Positions 9,606-60,249 of a stretch of DNA of 64,000 bases are shown here, in pieces. How positions within the stretch are numbered: the stretch's first letter is position 1; every line of letters begins with the position of its first letter. The stretch lies in the IMG/VR virus record IMGVR_UViG_3300008120_000059, positions 64,001-128,000 of that record, one strand, 5' to 3'. The translations under genes were made by a program, and so were the position numbers. The notes beneath the pieces are model-generated. The model did not search any database. It was not told the origin of the DNA and saw only the letters and a list, made by a program, of their open reading frames with translations. The DNA is from a virus. Taxonomy: Duplodnaviria; Heunggongvirae; Uroviricota; Caudoviricetes.

Positions 9606-10418
9606 TTATAAATAGTTTAATAATCCATAACTGTCGTTACGAAGTTTCTTTAGTGCTTTATCACGTAGTTGTCTAATACGTTCTTTAGTGCATCCGAATT
9701 CATCACCCAAGTCTTCTAAATTCATTTCAATACCGTTCAACCCATAAGACTTTTCAATAATGACCTTTTCTCTATCGTCAAGGATTGAAAGCATTTGAGA
9801 AACTCTTTTTTTAATTTCTTCAGACGTATTTAAAATGTCTTCAGGGTTATCAGCGTTGACATTAATGATGGTATCGATTAATTGGTCTCCCTCTTCATTT
9901 ATTTCATCATTCAAGTTTACACAATGAGGTAGTACTATTTCTGCCCCATTATCTTCATAATTGATAAAGAAAGGGTCATCAACATTTAACTGTTCATTTT
10001 TCTTTCTTTTTTGATTTTCCTGAATAATGTTTGACGGCAGTCTTATCATCCTTGAATTCTCGTTTAGAGAAGCCATAATAGATTGTTTAATCCACCAAAC
10101 AGCATATGAAATAAATTTGTAACCACTGTTAGGGTCAAATCTTTCGGCGGCTCGTATGAGACCGATATTACCTTCGGATATTAAATCAATTAAATCCATA
10201 CCATTGTTTTGATATGATTTAGCGACGGTGATTACAAAACGTAGATTACCCACTACGAGTTCGTTTAACAAATCGACTCTTTCCTTCTTAGGTAGGTCTT
10301 TATTTTTTAAGAGTTCGAAGACTTCATCCTGTCTTTGGTGAGTAATTACCTTAATCTTTCGGATGTCTTTGATGTAGTTCTGAATTTCTTCAGTGTTGAT
10401 TAGTAATGTTTTGGCCAT
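9606..10418 (-). CDS. RNA polymerase sigma-70 factor (RpoD/RpoS-like, lacking region 1.1)
   Basis: NLRFVITVAKSY, DLISEGNIGLIRAAERFD, KFISYAVWWIKQSI, region 4 LEDLGDEFGCTKERIRQLRDKALKKLR. Confidence 0.93.
   Translation of the reverse strand: MAKTLLINTEEIQNYIKDIRKIKVITHQRQDEVFELLKNKDLPKKERVDLLNELVVGNLRFVITVAKSYQNNGMDLIDLISEGNIGLIRAAERFDPNSGYKFISYAVWWIKQSIMASLNENSRMIRLPSNIIQENQKRKKNEQLNVDDPFFINYEDNGAEIVLPHCVNLNDEINEEGDQLIDTIINVNADNPEDILNTSEEIKKRVSQMLSILDDREKVIIEKSYGLNGIEMNLEDLGDEFGCTKERIRQLRDKALKKLRNDSYGLLNYL
9608..9614 (-). promoter_or_regulatory. TATTTAT box
   Basis: 11 nt upstream of ATG 9596, overlapping the last codons of the sigma gene (TAT TTA TAA). Confidence 0.5.
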
Positions 10419-28597: not shown

Positions 28598-31500
28598 TTA
28601 ACATGCTTCTCCACAAAATGTGTTACAATAATCACCACAACCAGTACCGTATGTATATTGCGAAGTATATATTGGTGGTACGAAGTTTCCTCTAAACAAT
28701 ATAAACACATTTGTCACTCTCATAAGACAAACGCTATAATTACCAGGGGCGTTATAACCTTGTGTTGTGAATGTACCATCACAACATTGGTATGCAAAGT
28801 ATACTTGATTATCATCTGAGGCTGTTAAATCATTAATATCAACAAAAAAGTCTGTACACAAACAATCACCACAAGCACCATCATACGTTATCTCCCCACC
28901 ATAAGGACCTAATACACTTGGAATACTACATGAACATATCTCAATTGTACCACTTGCTGGGTACACATTTGGGTCAAGTATTTCTGTGGGTGTTCCTCCA
29001 CCGCAACAAGTGGTATAGTTAACTATATTACCAGGTCCTAATCCTGTAATAATATATGACTCACAAACACATGGTGGAGTTGGGGTTGGGGTCGGAGTTG
29101 GAGTTGGGGTTGGGGTTGATGACGGATTTGAAACCGGAGATGGTGTTGGAGTGTTTGTTGGAGTGTTTGTTGGAGTTACAGTCTTGGTTGGTGTATTTGT
29201 AGGAGTATTGGTTGGTGTTAAAGTTGGAGTAACTGTCCTTGTTGGAGTATTTGTAGGGGTAAAGGTTGGAGTTACAGTCTTGGTTGGAGTATTTGTAGGG
29301 GTAAAGGTTGGAGTTACAGTCTTGGTTGGTGTATTTGTAGGGGTAAAGGTTGGAGTTACAGTCTTGGTTGGTGTATTTGTAGGAGTATTGGTTGGTGTTA
29401 AAGTTGGAGTAACTGTCCTTGTTGGTGTATTTGTCGGTGTTTTTGTTGGGGTTAAAGTTGGTGTAACTGTTGGTGTAACTGTTGGGGTTGGTGAAGGACA
29501 AGGGTGATAAGTTTCACATTCAGTACATGTATTGTATGTACCATACGCAGTGATTGCGGAACCAGGTACTCCTGGTCCGACTGAGTTTGTAACAAAATAA
29601 CAACAACCATTAATTGATATATAACGGTTTACTAAAAGATTTGGGTTAAATCCATTTTGACAACCAAATTGAATTGTATATTGTCCTGTTGTACCACAAC
29701 ATCCACATCTTTGTAAATCGAAAATCCAAGTGGCGCATGGGTTAGCTCCAATACATGTTTCACATGTATCAACACTAAATGATGATGGTGGATAATACCC
29801 GTCAACCCCACTAAAGTTTGGTGGTGAGTAGGTTTGACTATAACCTTCAACAAAATAACAACATCCATTTATAACAATAGTTTGACCTTGTGAAATACCG
29901 CTTTGAACATAGGTCAAATTAGTTGTTATACTTAAATAAGAAATAGTATTACCTAAAATACCACCATCACAACATGGTAATAAATAAACATAACCAACCT
30001 GTAAGGATGGTGATGGTGTTACTGTGCTTGTTGGTGTTAATGTAGGAGTTAAAGTTGGTGTAACTGTTTTTGTTGGTGTATTGGTAGGGGTTACGGATGG
30101 TGTTCTCGTAGGAGTAACACTATTGGTTGGGGTGTTAGTCGGGGTTAAAGTTGGTGTAACTGTTCTTGTTGGTGTATTGGTAGGGGTTACCGTAGGGCTA
30201 ACAGTGGCGGCTGGAGTTCTTGTTGGAGTAACAGTATTTGTTGGGGTATTGGTTGGTGTGAGAGTTGGTGTAACTGTTCTTGTTGGTGTATTGGTAGGGG
30301 TTACCGTATTCGTAGGTGTAACAGTTCTGGTTGGTGTTGGTGTCGGGGTTGGTGATGGACAAAAATTTAGAGTTTCTCCTAAACATTGTGCACAACTTGT
30401 CTGAACAGTAGTGTAAATCGTACCTCCAGGTCCTACCTGTTGCACATACGTTGCACATAACTGAATGTCTTGTAAATAAAATACCGTACCTAACAATGTA
30501 CCTAATGGTACTTGACCATAATAAACATTGGTGTCACCAGGACAACATGATTCAAATCTAGCAGCAACATACTGAGGACTAGCCGTTGGGGTTACTGTTT
30601 TGGTTGGTGTCAATGTTGGTGTAACAGTATTTGTTGGAGTGTTAGTTGGTGTTACGGTTGGACTAACTGTGGCAGCCGGTGTTCTTGTTGGTGTAACAGT
30701 ATTTGTTGGGGTATTTGTTGGAGTTACCGTAGGACTAACAGTGGCTGCTGGAGTTCTTGTTGGGGTATTGGTTGGGGTAACAGTATTTGTGGGGGTTACT
30801 GTGTTCGTTGGGGTATTGGTAGGTGTATTTGTTGGTGTTAATGTTGGACTAACAGTAGCCGCTGGTGTTCTTGTTGGTGTAACAGTATTTGTTGGGGTAT
30901 TTGTTGGAGTTACCGTATTTGTTGGAGTATTAGTTGGGGTGTTAGTTGGTGTTACAGTGTTGGTTGGTGTATTAGTTGGAGTTAAAGTTGGTGTAACTGT
31001 TCTTGTTGGTGTATTGGTAGGTGTAACTGTATTCGTAGGGGTGACTGTATTAGTTGGAGTGTTGGTTGGAGTATTAGTTGGAGTTAAGGTTGGACTAACA
31101 GTGGCAGCTGGTGTTCTTGTCGGGGTTACGGTATTAGTAGGGGTATTGGTTGGAGTTACCGTATTTGTTGGAGTATTAGTTGGGGTGTTGGTTGGAGTAA
31201 CAGTGTTGGTTGGGGTGTTAGTAGGGGTGTTGGTCGGTGTAACTGTATTTGTTGGAGTAACAGTATTAGTAGGTGTGTTTGTTGGTGTGTTAGTCGGTGT
31301 TAATGTTGGACTAACAGTAGCCGCTGGTGTTCTCGTAGGAGTTACAGTATTGGTAGGAGTATTGGTAGGAGTAACGGTGTTTGTTGGGGTGTTTGTAGGA
31401 GTATTGGTTGGTGTTACAGTATTGGTTGGAGTATTGGTTGGTGTAAAAGTTGGTGTAACAGTTTTTGTTGGTGTATTAGTAGGAGTATTGGTCGGTGTGA

Positions 31501-34500
31501 CAGTGTTGGTTGGTGTTACTGTATTTGTTGGAGTATTGGTTGGGGTATTGGTTGGTGTAAGGGTAGGACTAACAGTGGCTGCCGGAGTTCTTGTTGGAGT
31601 AACAGTATTGGTTGGGGTATTGGTTGGTGTAACAGTATTAGTCGGCGTATTGGTTGGAGTATTTGTTGGTGTGACTGTATTCGTTGGAGTGTTAGTAGGT
31701 GTAAAAGTTGGTGTGACGGTTCTTGTTGGTGTATTGGTTGGTGTAACGGTATTGGTTGGGGTGTTTGTGGGTGTAAGGGTAGGACTAACAGTGGCGGCCG
31801 GAGTTCTTGTTGGAGTCACTGTATTGGTCGGTGTGTTGGTGGGTGTGACTGTGTTAGTAGGTGTATTTGTAGGTGTATTAGTTGGTGTGACTGTATTTGT
31901 TGGAGTGTTTGTTGGGGTGTTTGTGGGTGTAACAGTATTAGTAGGAGTATTGGTTGGTGTTACAGTTTTGGTTGGAGTGTTAGTAGGTGTAACAGTATTA
32001 GTAGGTGTATTGGTAGGTGTATTGGTTGGTGTAACAGTATTCGTAGGAGTATTTGTTGGAGTATTTGTTGGACTAACAGTAGCTGCTGGTGTTCTTGTTT
32101 AGCTGCTGGTGTTCTTGTTGGGGTTACGGTATTAGTTGGGGTTACAGTGTTAGTCGGAGTGTTAGTTGGTGTATTCGTTGGTGTAACGGTATTTGTTGGG
32201 GTGTTAGTTGGTGTATTTGTTGGTGTTACTGTATTGGTAGGAGTATTTGTAGGACTCAATGTAGGTGTAACTGTATTGGTCGGTGTTAAAGTTGGTGTAA
32301 CTGTCTTTGTTGGTGTATTAGTAGGTGTCTGAGTTGGTGTAACTGTATTAGTCGGAGTATTAGTAGGCGTAACAGTGTTTGTTGGAGTATTGGTTGGGGT
32401 ATTTGTAGGAGTTACCGTATTGGTTGGGGTGTTTGTAGGAGTATTGGTAGGGGTGACAGTCTTGGTTGGAGTATTTGTGGGGGTAACAGTATTTGTTGGG
32501 GTAACCGTATTAGTTGGTGTGTTGGTTGGAGTATTTGTTGGGGTTAGAGTTGGTGTAACAGTTTTTGTTGGTGTATTAGTTGGAGTAACGGTATTTGTTG
32601 GGGTATTGGTTGGGGTATTTGTAGGAGTTACCGTATTAGTCGGGGTATTAGTAGGCGTAACAGTGTTTGTTGGAGTATTGGTTGGGGTGTTTGTAGGAGT
32701 TAAGGTAGGTGTAACAGTCTTGGTTGGGGTGTTGGTTGGTGTAACTGTATTAGTAGGTGTGTTAGTTGGTGTAACTGTATTAGTAGGTGTATTTGTTGGA
32801 GTATTTGTTGGGGTAACAGTATTCGTAGGAGTATTGGTCGGTGTTAATGTAGGAGTAACAGTTCTTGTTGGAGTATTTGTTGGGGTAACAGTATTCGTAG
32901 GAGTATTAGTAGGTGTTAATGTAGGTGTAACAGTCTTGGTCGGAGTGTTTGTAGGAGTATTTGTTGGTGTAACAGTGTTTGTTGGTGTTACCGTGTTTGT
33001 AGGAGTATTGGTAGGAGTGTTCGTTGGAGTATTGGTTGGTGTTAATGTAGGTGTAACAGTATTAGTAGGTGTTAATGTAGGTGTAACAGTCTTGGTTGGG
33101 GTGTTTGTAGGAGTATTTGTTGGTGTAACGGTGTTCGTAGGGGTAACTGTAGGACTCAATGTAGGGGTTACAGTATTGGTCGGAGTATTAGTAGGTGTTA
33201 ATGTAGGTGTAACAGTCTTGGTTGGTGTATTGGTTGGGGTAACCGTGTTAGTTGGTGTGTTGGTGGGTGTTACTGTATTAGTAGGAGTAACTGTAGGACT
33301 CAATGTAGGAGTTACAGTCTTGGTTGGTGTATTAGTGGGTGTGTTTGTTGGTGTAACAGTATTGGTTGGGGTAACCGTGTTAGTTGGTGTGTTGGTTGGA
33401 GTATTTGTTGGGGTATTGGTTGGGGTGACTGTCTTAGTCGGTGTATTAGTTGGGGTTACTGTATTTGTTGGTGTAACCGTATTTGTTGGTGTATTTGTGG
33501 GTGTATTGGTTGGAGTTAAAGTTGGTGTTACAGTTTTTGTTGGTGTGTTGGTCGGTGTAACTGTATTTGTTGGTGTATTTGTGGGTGTATTGGTCGGTGT
33601 AACTGTATTTGTTGGAGTATTTGTTGGGGTGTTAGTGGGTGTAACAGTATTAGTAGGAGTATTTGTGGGCGTATTGGTCGGTGTAACTGTATTTGTCGGA
33701 GTATTGGTTGGGGTATTTGTTGGTGTAACGGTGTTCGTAGGGGTAACTGTAGGACTCAATGTAGGGGTTACAGTGTTTGTAGGAGTGTTTGTGGGAGTGT
33801 TGGTTGGGGTAACTGTATTAGTAGGAGTAACTGTAGGGGTGACAGTTTTAGTAGGTGTATTAGTTGGAGTATTGGTAGGGGTTACAGTATTAGTAGGGGT
33901 ATTTGTAGGAGTTAATGTAGGAGTTACAGTCTTGGTTGGGGTATTTGTTGGTGTAACGGTGTTCGTAGGGGTAACTGTAGGACTCAATGTGGGAGTCACC
34001 GTATTGGTCGGAGTATTGGTGGGGGTTACTGTATTAGTAGGAGTATTAGTAGGAGTATTGGTTGGGGTTACCGTGTTGGTCGGAGTTAAAGTTGGTGTAA
34101 CAGTTTTTGTTGGTGTATTGGTTGGAGTTACAGTGTTCGTAGGGGTATTTGTTGGTGTTAGAGTTGGTGTAACAGTTTTTGTTGGTGTATTAGTAGGAGT
34201 TACGGTGTTAGTTGGAGTGTTGGTAGGTGTGTTAGTTGGTGTTACAGTGTTGGTTGGTGTATTAGTAGGTGTCTGAGTTGGTGTAACTGTCTTGGTTGGG
34301 GTATTAGTTGGCGTTACAGTATTGGTTGGGGTTACCGTATTTGTAGGAGTTACGGTATTGGTTGGAGTAACAGTATTAGTCGGCGTTACTGTGTTAGTTG
34401 GGGTGTTAGTGGGGGTAACAGTATTAGTAGGAGTAACGGAATTCGTGGGAGTGTTTGTAGGAGTGTTTGTTGGTGTTAATGTAGGTGTTACGGTTTTTGT

Positions 34501-37500
34501 TGGTGTATTGGTTGGGGTTACTGTATTTGTAGGAGTATTTGTAGGAGTTAAGGTAGGTGTAACAGTATTGGTTGGGGTATTGGTAGGTGTGTTGGTCGGG
34601 GTGACTGTGTTAGTTGGTGTAACTGTATTAGTTGGTGTATTCGTAGGGGTTTGAGTTGGTGTAACAGTATTGGTTGGGGTATTTGTTGGAGTTAAAGTTG
34701 GTGTGACAGTTTTTGTTGGTGTATTGGTAGGAGTTACGGTATTTGTAGGAGTATTAGTCGGTGTCTGAGTTGGTGTTACGGTGTTTGTTGGAGTATTGGT
34801 TGGAGTTAATGTAGGTGTTACAGTCTTGGTTGGTGTATTAGTTGGTGTTACAGTATTAGTAGGTGTAACAGTATTAGTAGGTGTAACAGTGTTTGTAGGT
34901 GTAACGGTATTGGTGGGAGTCACCGTATTAGTTGGTGTGTTAGTTGGGGTTACGGTGTTGGTTGGAGTAACGGTATTTGTTGGGGTGTTTGTAGGAGTGT
35001 TTGTTGGTGTTAATGTAGGTGTTACGGTTTTTGTTGGTGTATTGGTTGGTGTAACAGTATTTGTTGGTGTGTTGGTGGGTGTGTTGGTGGGTGTTACAGT
35101 ATTAGTTGGGGTATTAGTAGGACTCAATGTTGGGGTAACAGTATTCGTTGGTGTTACAGTATTGGTTGGAGTGTTTGTTGGGGTATTTGTTGGGGTTACG
35201 GTATTAGTAGGGGTATTGGTTGGAGTTAATGTAGGAGTAACAGTCTTGGTTGGTGTATTAGTTGGCGTAACAGTGTTTGTTGGGGTGTTAGTTGGGGTAT
35301 TTGTAGGGGTTACCGTATTGGTCGGAGTGTTGGTTGGTGTTAATGTAGGAGTAACAGTCTTGGTTGGAGTGTTTGTTGGGGTAACAGTATTGGTTGGAGT
35401 CACTGTATTAGTTGGTGTGTTGGTCGGTGTATTTGTTGGGGTTAAAGTTGGTGTGACAGTTTTTGTTGGTGTATTGGTTGGGGTTACTGTGTTAGTAGGA
35501 GTGTTTGTAGGTGTATTAGTAGGGGTATTAGTATTAGTCGGGGTATTGGTCGGTGTAACTGTATTCGTTGGAGTAACGGTAGGAGTTAATGTAGGAGTAA
35601 CAGTCTTGGTTGGTGTATTAGTAGGTGTGTTAGTAGGGGTTACCGTATTGGTTGGGGTGTTAGTCGGGGTAACTGTGTTAGTTGGTGTGTTAGTTGGTGT
35701 GTTGGTCGGAGTTACCGTATTTGTTGGAGTATTTGTAGGGGTTAAGGTAGGCGTAACAGTTCTTGTTGGAGTATTGGTCGGTGTAACTGTATTCGTTGGA
35801 GTTACAGTGTTAGTGGGGGTTACGGTATTGGTCGGCGTTACAGTGTTAGTCGGTGTTACCGTATTAGTTGGAGTATTTGTTGGCGTAACAGTGTTTGTTG
35901 GAGTTACAGTGTTTGTGGGGGTATTGGTTGGAGTATTGGTGGGAGTCTGAGTTGGGGTGACTGTCTTAGTTGGGGTATTGGTCGGGGTAACTGTGTTGGT
36001 TGGAGTAACGGTATTTGTTGGGGTATTGGTCGGGGTATTGGTTGGAGTTAAAGTTGGCGTAACAGTGTTTGTTGGTGTATTGGTAGGTGTTACAGTATTA
36101 GTTGGGGTATTGGTTGGAGTTAAAGTTGGTGTAACAGTTTTTGTTGGTGTATTAGTTGGCGTTACAGTATTAGTTGGTGTGTTAGTTGGTGTGTTTGTTG
36201 GGGTTACCGTATTGGTCGGAGTTACCGTAGGACTCAATGTAGGAGTTACAGTATTAGTTGGTGTGTTGGTTGGTGTGACTGTATTCGTTGGAGTGTTAGT
36301 AGGTGTCTGAGTTGGGGTAACAGTATTTGTTGGAGTATTGGTAGGAGTATTGGTAGGGGTTACAGTATTGGTAGGAGTATTGGTAGGGGTTACAGTATTG
36401 GTAGGAGTATTCGTTGGGGTTAGAGTTGGTGTAACAGTTTTGGTAGGAGTATTAGTAGGGGTTACAGTATTTGTAGGAGTTACCGTAGGACTCAATGTGG
36501 GAGTCACCGTATTAGTTGGTGTATTGGTTGGGGTTACGGTGTTGGTTGGAGTGTTTGTAGGTGTATTAGTTGGAGTAACAGTATTTGTAGGTGTATTAGT
36601 CGGGGTATTGGTTGGTGTTACGGTGTTGGTTGGGGTTAAAGTTGGTGTGACAGTTTTTGTTGGTGTATTGGTTGGCGTAACAGTGTTTGTCGGAGTATTA
36701 GTTGGGGTGTTGGTTGGTGTATTAGTTGGAGTTACAGTGTTGGTTGGAGTGTTAGTTGGTGTTACGGTATTGGTTGGGGTTACTGTGTTTGTAGGAGTAT
36801 TGGTCGGTGTATTCGTTGGGGTTAGAGTTGGTGTAACAGTTTTGGTAGGAGTATTAGTAGGAGTTATAGTATTCGTTGGTGTGTTGGTCGGTGTAACAGT
36901 ATTAGTTGGGGTGTTGGTTGGGGTGTTGGTTGGAGTAACAGTATTAGTTGGAGTATTAGTTGGGGTGTTGGTTGGAGTAACAGTGTTTGTTGGGGTTACC
37001 GTAGGGCTCAATGTGGGAGTTACAGTTTTAGTAGGGGTGTTTGTTGGAGTTACGGTGTTGGTTGGGGTATTGGTTGGTGTGTTAGTTGGTGTAACTGTAT
37101 TAGTGGGAGTCACTGTAGGGCTCAATGTTGGAGTTACAGTGTTGGTTGGGGTGTTAGTTGGTGTATTGGTTGGTGTAACTGTATTCGTTGGAGTGTTTGT
37201 AGGAGTGTTGGTTGGGGTTACAGTATTAGTTGGTGTGTTGGTTGGAGTTAATGTAGGTGTAACGGTTCTTGTGGGGGTGTTGGTAGGGGTTACGGTATTA
37301 GTTGGAGTGTTTGTTGGGGTATTTGTTGGGGTTACGGTATTAGTTGGAGTGTTTGTTGGGGTATTTGTTGGGGTTACGGTATTAGTAGGGGTATTGGTTG
37401 GGGTATTTGTTGGGGTTACGGTATTAGTAGGGGTATTGGTTGGAGTTAATGTAGGTGTAACGGTTCTTGTGGGGGTGCTGGTAGGGGTTACGGTGTTAGT

Positions 37501-40500
37501 TGGAGTGTTGGTAGGTGTGTTAGTTGGCGTAACGGTGTTAGTTGGAGTCACAGTCGGACTCAATGTAGGTGTTACTGTATTTGTTGGGGTGTTGGTAGGG
37601 GTATTTGTAGGTGTTACGGTGTTGGTAGGTGTAACTGTTGGACTCAATGTAGGAGTCACAGTATTTGTTGGTGTATTTGTAGGTGTGTTAGTTGGGGTAA
37701 CGGTATTAGTTGGAGTGTTGGTTGGTGTATTTGTTGGTGTTACTGTGTTAGTAGGGGTATTTGTGGGAGTATTTGTAGGTGTTACGGTGTTGGTAGGTGT
37801 AACTGTTGGACTCAATGTGGGAGTCACAGTTTTAGTAGGAGTATTTGTAGGTGTTACGGTGTTGGTAGGTGTGTTTGTTGGGGTATTGGTTGGAGTTACC
37901 GTATTCGTCGGAGTATTAGTAGGGGTGTTAGTTGGAGTTACAGTGTTTGTTGGTGTGTTTGTAGGGGTATTGGTAGGTGTTACTGTGTTAGTAGGAGTAT
38001 TTGTAGGAGTATTGGTTGGTGTTACGGTATTTGTAGGAGTTACAGTTGGTGTTAATGTAGGAGTCACCGTGTTTGTTGGGGTATTGGTGGGAGTATTTGT
38101 AGGGGTTACCGTATTTGTCGGTGTATTGGTTGGTGTTAAAGTAGGTGTAACCGTTCTTGTTGGAGTGTTAGTTGGTGTAACCGTATTTGTAGGAGTATTA
38201 GTAGGGGTGTTGGTAGGGGTTACAGTATTCGTAGGGGTATTGGTTGGTGTATTCGTGGGTGTGACAGTATTAGTTGGTGTTACGGTTGGACTCAGTGTAG
38301 GGGTTACTGTATTGGTTGGAGTGTTAGTTGGGGTATTTGTAGGTGTAACTGTATTTGTTGGGGTGTTTGTAGGTGTATTAGTTGGTGTAACTGTATTAGT
38401 TGGTGTATTCGTAGGGGTTTGAGTTGGTGTAACAGTATTTGTAGGAGTCACAGTCGGACTCAATGTGGGAGTCACGGTCTTAGTCGGTGTGTTAGTAGGG
38501 GTAACTGTGTTCGTAGGAGTTACCGTAGGACTCAATGTAGGGGTGACAGTGTTGGTTGGAGTATTGGTTGGTGTGTTGGTTGGTGTTACGGTGTTTGTAG
38601 GAGTTACTGTATTAGTAGGAGTGTTCGTAGGGGTATTGGTAGGGGTTACTGTGTTAGTTGGAGTGTTAGTAGGTGTATTGGTAGGAGTAACTGTATTGGT
38701 TGGTGTATTTGTGGGTGTAACAGTGTTAGTTGGTGTGTTAGTTGGTGTGTTGGTAGGAGTTACGGTGTTAGTTGGAGTATTTGTAGGTGTCTGAGTTGGT
38801 GTAACTGTATTCGTAGGGGTTACAGTCGGACTCAGTGTAGGTGTTACTGTGTTAGTCGGGGTAACTGTAGGTGTATTTGTTGGAGTTACAGTGTTGGTTG
38901 GGGTGTTGGTTGGAGTTACGGTGTTCGTTGGAGTATTGGTTGGTGTATTAGTTGGGGTTACTGTATTAGTTGGAGTATTGGTTGGGGTATTGGTTGGAGT
39001 TACAGTCTTGGTTGGTGTGTTGGTTGGTGTTACGGTGTTTGTTGGAGTATTGGTTGGAGTGTTTGTGGGGGTGTTGGTTGGTGTTACGGTGTTTGTTGGG
39101 GTGACTGTATTGGTTGGAGTGTTTGTTGGGGTGTTGGTGGGAGTATTTGTAGGGGTTACCGTATTTGTCGGTGTATTGGTTGGTGTTAAAGTAGGTGTAA
39201 CCGTTCTTGTTGGAGTTACAGTCGGACTCAATGTTGGAGTTACTGTATTGGTTGGTGTTAGTGTCGGGCTTAATGTTGGTGTAACAGTACTAGTTGGGGT
39301 ATTGGTTGGGGTGTTGGTTGGAGTTACCGTATTGGTTGGTGTATTCGTCGGTGTATTTGTAGGTGTAACAGTATTCGTAGGTGTTACAGTTGGAGTATTG
39401 GTTGGGGTTACTGTGTTAGTTGGAGTATTGGTGGGGGTATTGGTTGGAGTAACAGTATTTGTTGGTGTCACAGTCGGACTCAATGTTGGTGTAACAGTTT
39501 TTGTTGGGGTATTTGTCGGTGTCTGAGTTGGTGTTACGGTATTGGTTGGCGTATTGGTAGGAGTATTGGTTGGCGTATTTGTTGGAGTTACGGTATTAGT
39601 TGGTGTGACTGTATTGGTTGGGGTGTTAGTCGGCGTGTTCGTAGGGGTGTTGGTTGGTGTTACCGTATTTGTTGGTGTATTAGTAGGTGTGTTAGTAGGT
39701 GTTACTGTATTTGTAGGCGTGTTCGTGGGAGTCTGAGTTGGTGTTACAGTGTTAGTAGGAGTGTTAGTTGGCGTGTTAGTGGGTGTAACAGTATTAGTAG
39801 GAGTCACCGTTGGACTCAATGTAGGTGTAACAGTATTGGTTGGTGTGTTGGTCGGAGTGTTGGTAGGAGTTACAGTATTAGTAGGAGTCACCGTTGGACT
39901 CAATGTAGGTGTAACTGTATTTGTTGGGGTATTTGTTGGGGTATTGGTAGGAGTTACTGTATTAGTCGGAGTGTTGGTCGGGGTGTTGGTTGGAGTAACA
40001 GTGTTGGTGGGAGTATTGGTTGGAGTGTTAGTTGGTGTATTTGTTGGGGTTACGGTGTTGGTTGGAGATACCGTATTTGTAGGAGTATTGGTTGGAGTGT
40101 TAGTTGGGGTTAGTGTTGGGGTTACGGTGTTTGTTGGGGTATTGGTAGGTGTATTGGTTGGTGTAACGGTATTTGTAGGAGTAACAGTGTTGGTTGGAGT
40201 ATTGGTAGGACTTAATGTTGGCGTATTAGTTGGGGTTACGGTGCTGGTTGGAGTCACTGTTGGACTCAATGTAGGTGTAACTGTATTTGTTGGTGTGTTG
40301 GTAGGAGTGTTTGTAGGAGTCACAGTATTAGTAGGAGTCACAGTTGGACTTAATGTGGGAGTTACTGTATTAGTTGGAGTGTTGGTAGGTGTGTTAGTTG
40401 GGGTTACTGTATTTGTCGGGGTATTGGTTGGGGTATTTGTTGGTGTAACGGTGTTGGTCGGAGTGTTTGTGGGAGTATTTGTAGGAGTTACTGTGTTCGT

Positions 40501-43500
40501 AGGAGTTACTGTAGGACTCAATGTTGGTGTTACTGTATTTGTTGGGGTGTTAGTAGGAGTGTTTGTTGGAGTCACCGTGTTTGTTGGGGTATTGGTGGGA
40601 GTATTTGTTGGTGTAACAGTATTTGTTGGGGTGTTAGTTGGGGTGTTGGTAGGAGTTACCGTATTGGTTGGTGTGTTAGTTGGGGTGTTGGTAGGAGTTA
40701 CCGTATTGGTTGGTGTGTTAGTAGGAGTGTTTGTTGGTGTAACAGTATTGGTTGGTGTGTTAGTAGGAGTGTTTGTTGGTGTAACAGTATTGGTAGGAGT
40801 TACAGTTGGGGTGTTGGTTGGAGTTACAGTATTAGTAGGCGTATTGGTAGGAGTATTAGTTGGAGTTACTGTATTTGTAGAAGTATTGGTAGGAGTATTG
40901 GTAGGGGTGACAGTATTGGTGGGCGTATTGGTAGGAGTATTGGTTGGGGTGACTGTATTTGTTGGAGTATTTGTTGGGGTGTTAGTTGGAGTTACTGTAT
41001 TTGTAGGAGTATTGGTAGGAGTATTGGTAGGGGTGACAGTATTGGTGGGGGTGTTTGTAGGAGTATTGGTAGGGGTGACAGTATTGGTTGGAGTATTAGT
41101 TGGGGTGACTGTATTTGTTGGAGTATTTGTTGGGGTGTTGGTAGGGGTGTTGGTAGGAGTTACAGTATTGGTTGGAGTAACTGTATTGGTTGGAGTGTTT
41201 GTCGGGGTATTTGTAGGTGTCAGTGTCGGTGTTACGGTATTTGTTGGAGTATTAGTAGGAGTGTTAGTTGGTGTAACCGTATTTGTTGGTGTATTTGTGG
41301 GTGTATTGGTAGGAGTAACTGTATTGGTAGCCGTATTGGTAGGAGTGTTGGTTGGTGTATTAGTTGGTGTGACTGTATTGGTCGGAGTTACCGTCGGTGT
41401 ATTTGTTGGGGTTACGGTATTGGTAGGGGTTACTGTTGGTGTATTCGTAGGCGTGTTTGTTGGGGTTACGGTATTTGTTGGAGTATTAGTGGGGGTATTC
41501 GTAGGTGTATTGGTTGGTGTTACGGTGTTAGTTGGGGTATTTGTAGGGGTTTGAGTTGGTGTAACGGTATTGGTTGGAGTCACTGTTGGACTCAATGTTG
41601 GCGTTACCGTATTGGTAGGAGTATTAGTTGGCGTATTGGTAGGAGTAACTGTGTTGGTTGGGGTGTTGGTAGGAGTGTTAGTTGGTGTTACAGTATTAGT
41701 TGGTGTGTTAGTTGGTGTGTTTGTTGGTGTTACGGTGTTCGTAGGGGTGTTAGTAGGTGTCAGTGTTGGGGATACCGTATTGGTAGGAGTGTTAGTTGGT
41801 GTATTTGTAGGGGTTACCGTATTGGTAGGAGTATTAGTTGGTGTATTTGTAGGAGTAGCAGTATTAGTAGGGGTATTTGTTGGAGTATTGGTCGGTGTTA
41901 CAGTGTTTGTTGGAGTGTTGGTTGGTGTTACAGTGTTTGTTGGGGTGTTTGTCGGAGTGTTGGTTGGGGTATTCGTTGGTGTTACAGTATTTGTAGGGGT
42001 TACGGTGTTGGTTGGAGTATTGGTGGGGCTTAATGTTGGGGTATTTGTAGGGGTTACGGTGTTGGTTGGGGTCGCTGTTGGAGTCAATGTAGGTGTAACT
42101 GTATTGGTTGGGGTATTGGTAGGAGTATTGGTTGGGGTAACAGTATTGGTAGGAGTAACTGTTGGACTCAATGTAGGAGTAACTGTATTGGTAGGAGTGT
42201 TTGTTGGTGTATTGGTTGGTGTTACAGTATTAGTTGGAGTATTTGTTGGAGTTAAAGTTGGTGTAACAGTTTTTGTTGGTGTATTAGTTGGGGTGTTAGT
42301 AGGAGTTACTGTATTGGTTGGTGTGTTTGTGGGAGTATTGGTTAATGTAACGGATGGTGTTACAGTGTTGGTTGGTGTTACCGTTGGAGTATTGGTGGGT
42401 GTTGGGGTGCTCGTTGGAGTTGGTGAGGGTAACATTGTATAATCAATGTCACAAGAAGGTGCTGGTGTTGGTGAAACCGTCACAGTTACACTTGGTGTAT
42501 TTGTTGGAGTTACAGTATTGGTTGGAGTTACAGTATTTGTCGGGGTGTTTGTGGGGGTAACTGTATTGGTTGGAGTCACTGTTGGACTCAATGTTGGTGT
42601 TACAGTGTTAGTAGGAGTGTTGGTCGGCGTGTTAGTTGGAGTATTGGTTGGTGTTACGGTGTTAGTTGGTGTTACCGTAGGACTCAATGTAGGAGTCACA
42701 GTATTGGTAGGTGTATTGGTTGGAGTATTGGTTGGTGTTACGGTGTTAGTTGGTGTTACCGTAGGACTCAATGTAGGAGTCACAGTATTCGTTGGTGTGT
42801 TTGTAGGTGTATTAGTCGGAGTTACGGTGTTGGTTGGAGTTACGGTATTTGTGGGAGTGTTTGTAGGAGTGTTGGTAGGAGTGTTTGTTGGAGTTACGGT
42901 GTTGGTTGGGGTATTGGTTGGGGTATTGGTTGGTGTAACGGTATTTGTAGGAGTATTTGTAGGTGTCTGAGTTGGAGTTACTGTATTCGTCGGTGTGTTT
43001 GTTGGGGTGTTGGTAGGAGTTACGGTATTGGTAGGACTTAATGTTGGAGTGTTAGTTGGAGTATTTGTTGGAGTTACTGTGTTGGTTGGAGTATTCGTAG
43101 GTGTAACCGTATTTGTTGGTGTATTAGTTGGGGTGTTTGTAGGTGTATTAGTTGGTGTCACAGTTTCTGTTGGAGTCACTGTAACAGTATTGGTTGGTGT
43201 GACTGTATTGGTAGGGGTTACGGTGTTGGTTGGTGTAAGTGTTGGTGTTTCTGTGGGAGTATTTGTTGGTGTGTTGGTGGGGGTATTTGTTGGTGTTTCG
43301 GTTGGTGTATTTGTAGGTGTATTAGTTGGAGCTACCGTATTTGTTGGAGTTACAGTTGGAGTGTTAGTTGGGGTAACCGTTGGTGTAACAGTATTGGTAG
43401 GAGTATTGGTTGGGGTTTGAGTTGGTGTAACGGTTGCAGTATTTGTTGGTGTTAGGGTAGGTGTTTCAGTTTGTGTTACAGTGGGTGTATTGGTTGGAGT

Positions 43501-44748
43501 TACAGTATTGGTTGGAGTTACAGTTGAGGTATTAGTCGGAGTGTTAGTTGGTGTTATGGTGTTGGTTGGGGTATTGGTAGGTGTTTCGGTAGGGGTAACG
43601 GTTGGACTCAGTGTTGGTGTTACTGTGTTAGTCGGAGTATTAGTTGGGGTGTTGGTTGGTGTTTCGGTAGGGGTAACGGTTAGGGTTACGGTGTTGGTTG
43701 GAGTATTGGTTGGTGTTTCGGTTGGTGTTTCGGTTGGTGTATTAGTTGGGGTAACAGTATTGGTTGGAGTTACAGTTGGGGTAACAGTTGGGGTAACAGT
43801 TGGAGTTACGGTGTTGGTTGGGGTATTGGTTGGTGTTTCGGTTGGTGTTTCGGTTGGTGTATTAGTTGGGGTAACAGTATTTGTTGGGGTGTTAGTGGGT
43901 GTTTCAGTCGGTGTATTAGTTGGGGTATTGGTTGGTGTTTCGGTAGGGGTTACTGTATGAGTTGGTGTATTGGTAGGTGTTTCGGTAGGGGTTACCGTAT
44001 TTGTTGGAGTTACAGTTGGAGTTTCGGTAGGGGTAACTGTATTTGTTGGGGTGTTGGTAGGTGTTTCAGTTGGTGTATTGGTTGGGGTTACCGTATTTGT
44101 TGGGGTTACAGTTGGAGTTTCGGTCGGAGTAACAGTTGGTGTCTCGGTTGGTGTAACTGTATTCGTAGGAGTTACAGTAGGTGTGTTGGCTGGTGATTCG
44201 GTTGGAGTTACTGTGTTAGTTGGGGTAACTGTAGGAGTTTCAGTTGGGGTAACCGTTGGGGTATTTGTTGGGGTATTGGTTGGAGTTACTGTGTTAGTTG
44301 GAGTAACTGTAGGAGTTTCAGTTGGGGTAACTGTAGGCTCGTTTGTTGGAGTATTAGTCGGAGTTACGGTATTCGTAGGAGTATTTGTTGGAGTGATAGT
44401 ATTGGTTGGGGTAACAGTAGGTGTTTTTGTAACCGTAGGTGTAACAGTAGGGGTTTTGGTAACTGTTGGGGTTGGGGTATTTGAAGTAAAGGTTGTTGGT
44501 GTTGGTGTTAATGATGGTGTAAGTGTTGGTGAAGGTGTAGGTGAAGGTGTAGGGCAAGGAATCTCAGCCACACAAGTTTTATCAAGTGACGGAAAATAAA
44601 CTGAGTAAGTACCTAAGTAGTAGTTTGTGTCGTAATAATATGGCATCACGACAGTACCTAAATTCAAGGTACCGCCAGTACAAGGATAAAATGTGATAAC
44701 ACCAATTTCACCATCAAAATTACCTGTGTTTATTTTTATTAATGCCAT
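28598..44748 (-). CDS. giant mucin-like Thr/Pro/Asn repeat protein (5,376 aa after removing a 20-nt duplication) with C-terminal Cys-rich modules
   Basis: Track ORFs 31960..44748 and 28598..31819 become one frame when one copy of the 20-mer at 32080-32119 is removed: (16151-20)/3 = 5377 codons. Confidence 0.8.
30578..44553 (-). repeat. ~14-kb degenerate coding repeat ([26 protein letters not shown] units)
   Basis: Continuous T/P/N/V tract of about 4,650 codons with diversified synonymous positions and some recent exact 42-nt tandem copies (about 37287-37370). Confidence 0.97.
32080..32119. repeat. exact 20-nt tandem duplication causing a frameshift
   Basis: tagctgctggtgttcttgtt at 32080-32099 and 32100-32119. 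Confidence 0.95.
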
Positions 44749-44771
44749 TTAAATCTACAGTCTTATCTATA

Positions 44772-44829
44772 TCTATTTTTATTATAAAAATATACTCATT
44801 TATTCGGGTATTGTCAACGTCTATTTTTA
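44772..44829 (-). promoter_or_regulatory. TTGACA-N17-TATATT promoter flanked by 10-bp direct repeats
   Basis: -35 at 44817-44812, -10 at 44794-44789; tctattttta at 44772-44781 and 44820-44829. Confidence 0.5.
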
Positions 44830-44838
44830 CAGTTTTTA

Positions 44839-57962: not shown

Positions 57963-59795
57963 TTAGAATGTAGTCGTTCCTAATGTTTTTACTCTAACTT
58001 TTATATCTTTCTGAGGAAATCTTATTTGATATATTTGGTTAGATTTCATATAGATAGTCATATCGGATTGAGCAATTTCTTTTGTGGTTGGGTCAATATA
58101 TGATTGTAACACTTCAGAAGATGAATATTCTCCACCTACGTTATTGAAAACTCTTATATCGACAGCGTTTACCACTCCATTTACTTCACCTATTGTTTTA
58201 TATAAATCACCAACAAATAATGGGTCACCCATTTTTCTTTTTTCAATTGAAAAATAACTAACAGTATCCTCGATAATAGTTTTAACAATCTCTGTTTGGT
58301 TACCATTTTTATCAATAACAACGTCAATCTCTAGTGTGAAATCAACCACTTCACCGCTTTGAACTTCTAAAAAGTCATTAACCATTCGGTACTCGGCTAA
58401 GTAAGATAAAATGTTGTTTTTTAATGTGTTTGAAACAGTATCAATAAGATTACCATTCTCATCATATGACAATAATTTAATTTTTATTTTATTGTCTTCT
58501 TCCATCACGTTTACCTTAGCGGGAGCCCCATATGTTGATGGCATTGTCTCAATTAAAGATTTATAATCATTAAGAGTTACCGCCCTATTTTGTGCAGAGA
58601 AGTTATATGCTATCATGTTTCTAACTTCTTCAATTGTGGGTTGGTCCGCACCTCCAACAGCTGGTGTTACGTTGGTTACGGTTAAAGAATTTTGTACTTG
58701 AGTGTTCGTTGATGAGTTAGGTCCATTAATAGAAAATTCAACATTATCTACACTTGTAATAATATCAATACCGAGATTACTATCCTTACCTCCTCCAATT
58801 CTATATTTTATGAATAACGTTGTATTTGATTTCGGTAAAGCACCTAATGATAGGTTATTCAAATACGTTCCAAGACTTACTCTTAAAGTACCTTGGTTAT
58901 AGTTGTCCAAATTATCCAATGGATTAACATTACCAGAACCAAATGTTACCGAAAAATAATTTTCGGGAGTATATTCTGTAATAAATTTATTTGTAACTGG
59001 AACGTATGTTCCCGATATGAAATTATCACTATCAGATGCCGATGTTGGGTCGGGCACAAATACTTTATCTTGTATTAATGATTTTACTTCGTACCATTTA
59101 TTTTCAGAACTTAAAAATTCAGAGTTAGTTGGATTATTTACAAAGTTTGTTCCCTCTTTATGAATTACTCCACTCACCCCTAATATGTTTTGTTCAGGTA
59201 AGAATATTTTTAAGAAAGGTTTTTGGTCAACTTCTGTTATAACTTTTCTATATATTCTTGTTACACCATTTACAACAGCTTCTCTTTTTACAATTGAGTA
59301 TGATATGAGTCTATTATTACCATCAAAATTTGGGATTTTTAATCTGTTTGGTTCACCTCTTTTATTGAAGGGATTTGAGAAATCAATATCGTCGATGGTT
59401 TCAAAAACTTGTCCCCCACCCGATACTTGTGCACCTGATTTTATAGTCCCCAAATAACGCTCATCTTCTTTATCTCCTCTAACAGGTACTTGTATTGTAA
59501 AATCACACAAAGAAACCGATGGTCTATTACCTGGTATTCTCATACCATATGTTTTGGCAATATGATACAATGATTGTCTTTGTTGTGCAAAATCTAGCAT
59601 TGTCTCTTGCCAAACCCTATCAATGTGAAAATGTAAATTGTCTGTCACAGCGGCATTTAAATCCAATAAAACAGAATAAATTGATGCGTCATTTGTATTC
59701 TTAATCAAATCGGGATAATATTCCCTTGTGAGATTAACTAGTTCCTGTCTTAAACTCGCAAAGTCTCTGACGGCGTATGATATTTTTTTAGCCAT
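57963..59795 (-). CDS. baseplate wedge subunit (T4 gp6 / baseplate J-like)
   Basis: DFASLRQEL, YRIGGG, GGADQPTIEEVR, QNRAVTLNDYK. Confidence 0.88.
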   Translation of the reverse strand: MAKKISYAVRDFASLRQELVNLTREYYPDLIKNTNDASIYSVLLDLNAAVTDNLHFHIDRVWQETMLDFAQQRQSLYHIAKTYGMRIPGNRPSVSLCDFTIQVPVRGDKEDERYLGTIKSGAQVSGGGQVFETIDDIDFSNPFNKRGEPNRLKIPNFDGNNRLISYSIVKREAVVNGVTRIYRKVITEVDQKPFLKIFLPEQNILGVSGVIHKEGTNFVNNPTNSEFLSSENKWYEVKSLIQDKVFVPDPTSASDSDNFISGTYVPVTNKFITEYTPENYFSVTFGSGNVNPLDNLDNYNQGTLRVSLGTYLNNLSLGALPKSNTTLFIKYRIGGGKDSNLGIDIITSVDNVEFSINGPNSSTNTQVQNSLTVTNVTPAVGGADQPTIEEVRNMIAYNFSAQNRAVTLNDYKSLIETMPSTYGAPAKVNVMEEDNKIKIKLLSYDENGNLIDTVSNTLKNNILSYLAEYRMVNDFLEVQSGEVVDFTLEIDVVIDKNGNQTEIVKTIIEDTVSYFSIEKRKMGDPLFVGDLYKTIGEVNGVVNAVDIRVFNNVGGEYSSSEVLQSYIDPTTKEIAQSDMTIYMKSNQIYQIRFPQKDIKVRVKTLGTTTF

Positions 59796-59796
59796 A

Positions 59797-60249
59797 TTAT
59801 ATGTTAATAATTATAAAATCGGACGAAACAAAAGGTTCGTTATTTATGTCATAGTCAATTCGAACTTTTGCGGTATATGGTTTGGTTGAATAATCAGAAA
59901 CTCTAAACAATCTTGAGTCCTCATCTTCTTGTGGGCTCATAGATTCTTCAGGGTCTTGGTCAGCGGGTGTAACTCTAATTGATTTTATTTCTAAATTAGG
60001 TATGTATAATTTCACCGCAGTTCTTATTTCATCTTCTATCTGACCCCATGTTACAGCGTCATTTGGTTCAAAAATAAATTCATATAATCTAGTCCCAAAA
60101 TCAGGTAAATAATATCTTGAACCCTTTCTTGTTAATAACAAGTGAATCAAGTTTGCACGAATCTCTCTCTCAGGGGTTTCGGTCATAACCAAAAAATCAC
60201 CCTTAGGACTAATTCTGAATGGAAAATCTATACCATATGTAATCGCCAT
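59797..60249 (-). CDS. baseplate gp25-like protein
   Basis: GIDFPF, IRANLIHLLLTRKGSRYYLPDFGTRLYEFIFEP. Confidence 0.9.
   Translation of the reverse strand: MAITYGIDFPFRISPKGDFLVMTETPEREIRANLIHLLLTRKGSRYYLPDFGTRLYEFIFEPNDAVTWGQIEDEIRTAVKLYIPNLEIKSIRVTPADQDPEESMSPQEDEDSRLFRVSDYSTKPYTAKVRIDYDINNEPFVSSDFIIINI

Follow-up and report, generated by a model that had tools for sequence, protein, structure and literature searches.

A giant threonine/proline-repeat gene in the fibre region of a freshwater phage: a candidate virion fibre on a mucin-like tether

Why should a phage spend about 16 kb on one protein, 86% of which is a threonine/proline repeat? The question is raised by a gene on the minus strand of the IMG/VR virus record IMGVR_UViG_3300008120_000059, which runs from an ATG at position 44748 to a stop codon at 28598-28600 of the window (the whole stretch of 64,000 nucleotides analysed here, bases 64,001 to 128,000 of a 162,907-bp contig with a CheckV completeness of 53%). 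It takes up 10% of the 163-kb contig and about 5% of the estimated genome. We conclude that it is a real gene of an abundant freshwater jumbo myophage and encodes about 5,380 to 5,470 residues; it is assigned to a phage because it lies in a virus record and is preceded by baseplate genes of the gp25-like and gp6/J-like kinds. The host is probably a member of the Bacteroidota. As to what the protein does, we favour, with a probability of roughly 55%, a virion fibre carried on a flexible, probably O-glycosylated tether.

Layout, length and integrity of the gene

The whole gene (28598-44748) encodes an N-terminal domain, a long stalk and five Cys-rich modules, all on the minus strand, as are nearly all genes of the window. 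The N-terminal domain of 64 residues (44557-44748), a predicted beta-sandwich, is proposed to be the virion anchor. The first part of the stalk (residues 65-758; 42475-44556) is a (Thr-X)n repeat with Glu-containing variants; a 17-residue break containing one Cys and the residues DIDYTM (42424-42474) separates it from the second part (32120-42423), again (Thr-X)n, with (TPTN)3-TV as its dominant unit (14 residues, 42 nucleotides). A 20-nucleotide word in two adjacent copies (32080-32119) then marks a frameshift site, likely a contig joint, and the third part of the stalk, in the frame that follows the joint, has recurring RTPAATVSP units (30587-32079). The Cys-rich modules are grouped 1 + 2 + 2: module 1 (30362-30586), a Thr/Pro linker of 115 residues (30017-30361), modules 2 and 3, which are an internal duplicate pair with CC motifs (29513-30016), a second Thr/Pro linker of 146 residues (29075-29512), and a C-terminal double module of 158 residues made of modules 4 and 5 (28601-29074), the proposed binding tip. 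The protein has 42 cysteines in all. An initial annotation, made from the sequence, had described a 65-residue N-terminal domain, a stalk of about 4,650 T/P/N/V residues, five Cys-rich modules at the C-terminal end and an almost G-free coding strand with an extreme skew. We recover each of these, the domain being one residue shorter, the stalk consisting of 48.5% T, 21% P, 15.7% N and 8.9% V, and the coding strand containing 7.1% G overall and 5.8% in the stalk, with a plus-strand GC skew of up to 0.77.

The same annotation had taken the gene to be a single open reading frame (ORF) of about 5,376 codons. The coding region and the figure stand, provided that one copy of the 20-nucleotide word is removed; in the window itself, translation table 11 yields two frames, 44748-31960 and about 32099-28598. 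The first has 4,262 codons and ends with 52 that are out of frame. The second runs without a stop for the 1,166 codons after the break, all modules included. The break is a perfect tandem of the word (32100-32119 and 32080-32099). Deleting one copy gives 5,376 residues, and inserting 268 nucleotides taken from an ENA contig (L082) gives 5,472. In that contig the 268 extra bases lie in frame between the two words, with a period of 288 nucleotides and an exact repeat of about 112. A JGI contig, Ga0114876_1000028 (L083), starts exactly at the second copy of the word, and the 3,502 nucleotides of the gene that remain in it are identical to the window. Two ENA contigs assembled with MEGAHIT from different samples (L082, 194 kb, and L085, 168 kb) have a single product of 5,378 residues called between the flanking genes, and we confirmed open codons over the 3,303 5' codons of L085 and the 3,317 3' codons of L082. 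Exact-pattern scans for either allele of the joint gave no match in JGI metagenome contigs or in IMG/VR. Because a contig end coincides with the duplicated word, an overlap-sized duplication being the trace of an untrimmed contig join, and because L083 begins at the joint and L082 reads through it, the frame break is most likely, on this sequence comparison, an assembly joint at which 268 nucleotides or one overlap copy were mishandled. We also considered that the duplication might serve programmed frameshifting or phase variation, and rejected this, the site being a contig end that an independent assembly reads through.

A more radical doubt is that the gene is an artefact or dead, its length stemming from a chimeric assembly of several alleles, or its break being a true frameshift in a decaying gene. 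The frameshift in the window, the indels between assemblies, the 8 of 12 related IMG/VR contigs that stop inside the repeat and a frame break in one related contig (L015) would fit this view. It is nevertheless scarcely credible, given an intact product of 5,378 residues in two independent assemblies otherwise identical to the window, the stop-free frame past the break, the position of the break exactly at the end of another contig, and the lack of repeated 99-mers in the gene.

This last point bears directly on length. Whether assembly had inflated the gene, a possibility raised in the initial annotation, was judged here from the repeats themselves. The longest exact repeat in the gene is 83 nucleotides and every 99-mer is unique, whereas an assembly that loops would leave exact copies; on this sequence evidence inflation of the repeat appears very unlikely. 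Moreover, one identical 18-residue peptide occurs 102 times and all 102 DNA versions of it differ, with an identity at third codon positions of 0.388 between units, against 0.386 expected for independent codon draws. Synonymous sites are thus fully randomised, which argues that the peptide repeat is old and that selection acting on the protein has kept it. Apart from indels, a single synonymous substitution separates the window from the ENA contigs over about 6,500 codons. The indels themselves, found in L082 and L085 relative to window positions 36373-42751, measure 30, 84 and 198 nucleotides, are in frame and are flanked by exact direct repeats of 42 to 71 nucleotides. All spacings between exact 36-mer repeats are multiples of 6 nucleotides.

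The stalk: alternation, conformation and glycosylation

Threonine occupies 97% of alternate stalk positions (Thr or Ser, 99.3%) and 0.1% of the others, and the register never slips in 4,642 residues. Periods of 2, 4 and 14 residues are found. The same rule governs orthologues built from other residues: the stalk of L002 (2,940 residues in all) is made of S-V-T-P units and that of L011 (2,737 residues) of T-I and T-V units, and across three orthologues of 2,737 to about 5,400 residues Ser or Thr holds 99 to 100% of alternate positions, again with no slip of register. Since the alternation is kept with S, V or I in place of other residues while synonymous sites are randomised, selection on the Thr/Pro frame, as initially proposed, is supported by orthologue and codon evidence. 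The argument first advanced for it was that TGA stops break the antisense frame wherever TQT occurs. The sense frame of the stalk contains no stop codon and the other five frames contain 15 to 704; in the least-broken antisense frame, which has 19, 13 of the 14 TGA stops fall at sense TPTQTP. The observation is therefore right, but as evidence for selection it is weak, and that from orthologues and codons is much stronger.

Antisense frames have also found their way into annotations. In the window, plus-strand ORFs such as 36338-38422 are antisense calls, a systematic annotation artefact of the G-poor repeat. Likewise, on the JGI contig Ga0114347_1000459 (L086:14485-21510), which ends in the repeat, a chain of antisense ORFs of up to 601 residues is annotated instead of the true gene.

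The 4,650-residue stalk has no Gly, 4 aromatic and 78 charged residues, and a Pro at about every fourth position. Its Lys and Arg residues number 55, so few that trypsin would hardly reveal it. Such a composition, rich in Ser/Thr and Pro and with few hydrophobic, aromatic or charged residues, is that of mucin-like domains and Pro/Thr linkers. A collagen G-X-Y repeat is not seen, there being no glycine and no period of 3 in the stalk, and a heptad pattern is equally absent. An ice-binding TxT array was rejected, as proline recurs at about every fourth residue. In the ESM Atlas, the clusters nearest to the stalk are unnamed viral proteins (score 0.91), which we take as a lead only.

Two conformations may be considered for such a chain. 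The alternation, above 99% in three divergent orthologues with zero register slips, and the regular 14-residue unit could be those of an ordered rod, in which Thr-X would build a multi-chain beta or polyproline-type fibre and act as a rigid spacer of about 1 micrometre. We find this improbable: the frequent prolines, the lack of Gly, the scarcity of aromatic and charged residues and the absence of heptad or collagen patterns fit disordered Pro/Thr linkers, of which the cellulosome linkers with the peptide PTNTPTNTP are an example, and the register could also stem from slippage in a DNA repeat with a 6-nucleotide period. A flexible tether has consequences for reach. The stalk had been estimated to exceed 1 micrometre, and this is true only of its fully stretched contour (1.4 to 1.7 micrometres); as a flexible chain it would span about 55 to 215 nm, as computed with assumed persistence lengths of 1 to 15 nm.

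Pro at position -1, +1 or +3 of Thr is a context favoured by mucin-type O-glycosylation, and 2,241 of the 2,255 stalk threonines have it. For this reason the stalk is probably O-glycosylated. N-x-S/T sequons are rare in it (2 among 729 Asn). The protein would be made in the cytoplasm, because it has no signal peptide, and a candidate source of cytoplasmic enzymes lies just before the window, on the plus strand: a 12-kb operon (G000:C1:51259-63368; L081:5259-17368) of 15 tightly packed soluble genes. These include at least four GT2-type glycosyltransferases, a UDP-GlcNAc 2-epimerase, two FkbM methyltransferases and a GDP-mannose 3,5-epimerase, and none of the 15 has a detected membrane segment. 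From its gene content the operon looks like a cytoplasmic glycan-building line.

Divergence, gene neighbourhood and proposed function

Relatives of the conserved upstream neighbour (P0006) were found in 79 IMG/VR loci, and in 12 of these the next gene opens with the same N-terminal domain. Two of these orthologues, L002 and L011, are complete; eight contigs stop inside the repeat. In one related contig (L015:15414-16708), the frame of the stalk breaks, an ORF of 255 residues being followed by an overlapping one of 192 in another frame. The domain is 79 to 96% identical across nine orthologues, and identity along the region follows a gradient. In L002, identity is 97% for P0006, 87% for the N-terminal domain, 45 to 51% for the shared Cys-rich modules and 54% for the next gene, so that it falls from 97% to 45-54% in the fibre-like genes that follow P0006; for module 5 the alignment is a local one only. 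The corresponding values in L011 are 89% for the N-terminal domain and 33% for the C-terminal module. Module 1 retains 49 to 51% identity in both. Modules 2 and 3 are present in L011 (47 to 59% identity) and absent from L002, so that module sets differ between orthologues. From the giant gene onward, the region thus appears, by sequence comparison, to be a hypervariable island between conserved genes. A conserved N-terminal part followed by a fast-evolving C-terminal part is the pattern of receptor-binding tail fibres. Among cultured-phage records, megablast of the neighbouring 14 kb and tblastn of P0006 and of the C-terminal 333 residues found nothing.

The position of the gene points the same way. 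The block is headed by two genes of the same strand, six to seven genes before the giant gene: a gp25-like baseplate gene (PF04965, E 1e-14) and a gp6/J-like baseplate wedge gene (phrog_6, E 1.7e-22; both within 57963-60249). Among cultured phages, the wedge protein has its best relative in the Flavobacterium phage immuto, which has the same gp25-like/wedge pair and, seven genes later, annotated tail fibre and tail spike genes. The giant gene therefore lies in a baseplate/tail-fibre gene block. Five genes and P0006 (44839-49083, minus strand; 1,414 residues) separate it from the wedge gene. P0006 is present letter for letter in the ESM Atlas, with no usable neighbours, and sequence searches of the PDB with three of the neighbours returned nothing. 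The 90-nucleotide AT-rich gap between P0006 and the giant gene (44749-44838) is bridged in ENA records by a 40-residue ORF placed there by gene callers.

Downstream, three minus-strand genes of like build (P0004, P0005 and P0003; 21776-28553) encode 854, 282 and 973 residues, with Cys-containing modules on Thr/Pro linkers, and one of them has NNKLY-type propeller-like repeats. The giant gene is therefore one member of a fibre-like block of the same build, not an isolated oddity. BLASTP of its five modules against the neighbouring fibre-like proteins found no significant similarity; mix-and-match thus seems to hold for architecture, and not for modules shared within the genome.

No known family was recognised at either end of the protein, and Pfam and PHROGs searches gave no hits. 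The N-terminal domain, which has three Cys and no signal peptide or membrane segment, is modelled as a six-stranded beta-sandwich with a predicted local distance difference test score (pLDDT) of 78. Its best fold match (Z 6.0) is one of many to unrelated, generic immunoglobulin-like (Ig-like) chains and lies below the level that separates relatives from chance. Hoc-type capsid decoration proteins are marked by tandem Ig-like domains; at the N terminus of the giant protein a single small beta-sandwich is modelled, in which Pfam finds no Ig family. A word-indexed search of proteins of 2,344 to 7,458 residues with this domain gave 76 candidates, none significant, and the collection evidently does not contain full-length long orthologues.

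The absence of a signal peptide or membrane segment at the N terminus weighs on the idea that the protein does not belong to the particle at all, being made late and released at lysis, or displayed on the infected cell, as an extracellular matrix, an aggregation factor or a decoy polymer. The 42 cysteines would suit an oxidising extracellular setting, and the size is extreme for assembly onto a particle. Yet the gene sits in a structural block and the strong conservation of the N-terminal domain suggests a fixed protein partner, which makes this explanation quite unlikely.

At the other end, the model of the C-terminal double module consists of two all-beta domains and has a pLDDT of 87.6. A search of 1.84 billion representative proteins yielded only 20 relatives, mostly short fragments, and the module reaches the C-terminal end in most of them; identity is 29 to 45% to all but one of the 20 aligned relatives, and 33 to 36% to two orthologues. 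The search of related IMG/VR loci gave no confirmed locus for it. Fold searches with the double module ended at E 0.24 (Foldseek, PDB), Z 4.0 (VIA) and E 0.11 (AFDB) for the best matches. Weak rows for viral vertex proteins, lectins, C2 and Ig-like domains and C-terminal domains of the type IX secretion system were below noise level and were not used.

The rapid divergence of these modules, which is that of host-range determinants, also speaks against a role in virion decoration, in which the protein would form 'hairs' on head, neck or sheath, a glycosylated brush acting as a shield or conferring stickiness to mucus, particles or envelopes with no specific receptor. Jumbo phages do have such structures: the Tenacibaculum phages PTm1 and PTm5, which infect Flavobacteriaceae, have capsid fibres, and others have hairy tails (PMC13282480). 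The stalk makes up most of the protein, and the N-terminal sandwich is of the generic Ig-like kind met in decoration proteins, at the non-significant Z given above. Decoration is unlikely all the same, since the gene stands in the baseplate/tail-fibre block and not beside capsid genes.

We therefore return to a virion fibre with an N-terminal anchor and distal binding modules, a reading suggested by gene position, conserved N terminus and variable tip. The N-terminal domain would attach the protein to the baseplate or tail; the stalk would be a non-globular, extended and flexible tether, to which soluble glycosyltransferases encoded by the phage itself probably add O-linked sugars in the cytoplasm; and the Cys-rich modules at its far end would bind structures of the host surface. 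Such a fibre would widen the capture radius of the particle by about 0.05 to 0.2 micrometre. Binding tips could be swapped while the anchor stays constant, and stalk length would change by indels in multiples of 6 nucleotides, which preserve both the reading frame and the Thr-X register. Of the roles initially put forward, those of tether, host capture and O-glycosylated shield would be the best candidates. A bolder version may be entertained, tentatively: an undescribed type of virion appendage, a phage-glycosylated 'fishing line' of micrometre contour with a strict (Thr/Ser-X)n shaft, among the longest phage polypeptides, whose length would be tuned by 6-nucleotide-quantised indels, whose orphan Cys-rich tips would be swapped for host range, and whose capture radius would be several times the particle size.

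Several observations weigh against the fibre reading. The placement of the protein in the virion is itself inferred. Neither P0006 nor the five other genes between the wedge gene and the giant gene match any family, and fold searches recognised no lectin or receptor-binding fold in the modules. The sugar operon lies about 29 kb from the giant gene and could serve DNA, lipid or host glycans; no glycosyltransferase of the GT60 (PF11397) or TibC type (TIGR04414) was found in the 53% of the genome searched. The indels between assemblies could be real length alleles or path choices of the assembler. Finally, the RNA evidence presented below consists of unstranded assembled contigs of essentially one study, to which DNA carry-over might contribute.

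The gene is widespread. Of the sampled 31-mers of its 3' 9.4 kb, 79 to 86% are present in at least 18 DNA runs; these come from 14 studies, date from 2017 to 2025 and carry the labels lake water, freshwater or fungus metagenome. Proteins identical to those of both flanking genes occur in 51 to 52 blocks of a large assembly collection. It is also likely to be transcribed, judging from word matches: in four metatranscriptome runs of one freshwater study of 2017, 21 to 63% of the sampled words of the 5' 6.7 kb were found, and in two of them 37 to 48% of the 3' part (RNA run X27, with a share of 0.05, was ignored as too small).

Two other genes of the phage may be mentioned. A sigma-70 family factor with regions 2 and 4 (Pfam) is encoded on the minus strand at 9606-10418 of the window, and a phage glutamine synthetase, also on the minus strand, at G000:C1:47702-48826 (L081:1702-2826). 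Glutamine synthetase has been highlighted as a trait of the freshwater moraphage lineage (PMC12619734).

Comparison with known systems

Tail fibres and receptor-binding proteins of myophages, T4-like and other, resemble the giant protein in gene position, after gp25-like and gp6/J-like genes, and in having a conserved N terminus, a fast-diverging C terminus that swaps modules, and a hypervariable island. It differs from them in that searches by sequence and by fold linked it to no solved fibre, and in its shaft, which is a Thr/Pro repeat of about 4,650 residues and not a beta-helix, a coiled coil or a collagen triple helix.

For the shaft, Pro/Thr linkers such as those of the CipA type in Clostridium thermocellum and the PT boxes of Cellulomonas are closer, as extended spacers between small binding modules. 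In the literature the peptide PTNTPTNTP is met only in linkers of cellulosomes and carbohydrate-binding modules (PMC3878649, PMC4687162). However, cellulase and cellulosome linkers measure 10 to 50 residues and the phage stalk is about 100-fold longer; it is moreover encoded by a phage, without a secretion signal, and follows a strict dipeptide periodicity.

Mucin-type domains, be they of animal mucins or of protist proteins that combine a Thr-rich tract with Cys modules, share with the giant protein the Thr/Pro tandem repeats and the Cys-rich terminal modules. In contrast to mucins, the phage protein does not pass through a secretory pathway, GT27 and GT60 enzymes were not found in the part of the genome searched, the DNA of the repeats has not been homogenised, and glycosylation is predicted from residue context.

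Modification of virion proteins by phage enzymes has a precedent in mycobacteriophages, where, according to the summary in PMC12619734 of Freeman et al. (2023, Cell Host Microbe, PMC10527164), phage enzymes O-glycosylate the phage's own virion proteins. Cytoplasmic phage glycosyltransferases are common to both cases, here in the form of the soluble glycosyltransferase operon. The substrates differ: in mycobacteriophages, as that summary has it, the enzymes act on short tags at the C termini of capsid and tail-tube subunits, whereas here the candidate substrate, a stalk containing 2,255 Thr, would belong to a separate fibre protein, its link with the enzymes being inferred.

Moraphages, freshwater jumbo phages predicted to infect Bacteroidota (PMC12619734), may be compared with the phage as a whole. 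Freshwater origin, an estimated genome of about 300 kb (163 kb at 53% completeness), glutamine synthetase and several glycosyltransferases are shared traits only; the best cultured relative of the wedge protein, again, is from a Flavobacterium phage. The moraphage paper (PMC12619734) makes no mention of a Thr-rich giant gene, and our literature searches found no description of such a giant Thr/Pro-stalk gene.

If the proposal is true, an abundant freshwater phage invests about 16 kb in one thread-like protein, and phages can make mucin-like tethers that greatly exceed in length every tail fibre shaft described so far, which bears on how hosts are found in dilute water and on how far virion glycosylation extends beyond mycobacteriophages. 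Genes of this kind break short-read assemblies, as the contigs ending in the repeat illustrate, give false frameshifts at joints and prompt antisense ORF calls, and are therefore systematically missing or garbled in viral databases. Judged by its sequence, the giant protein would work like a tail fibre joined to a mucin-like linker, and appears to stand apart both from the described fibre families and from collagen-like shafts.

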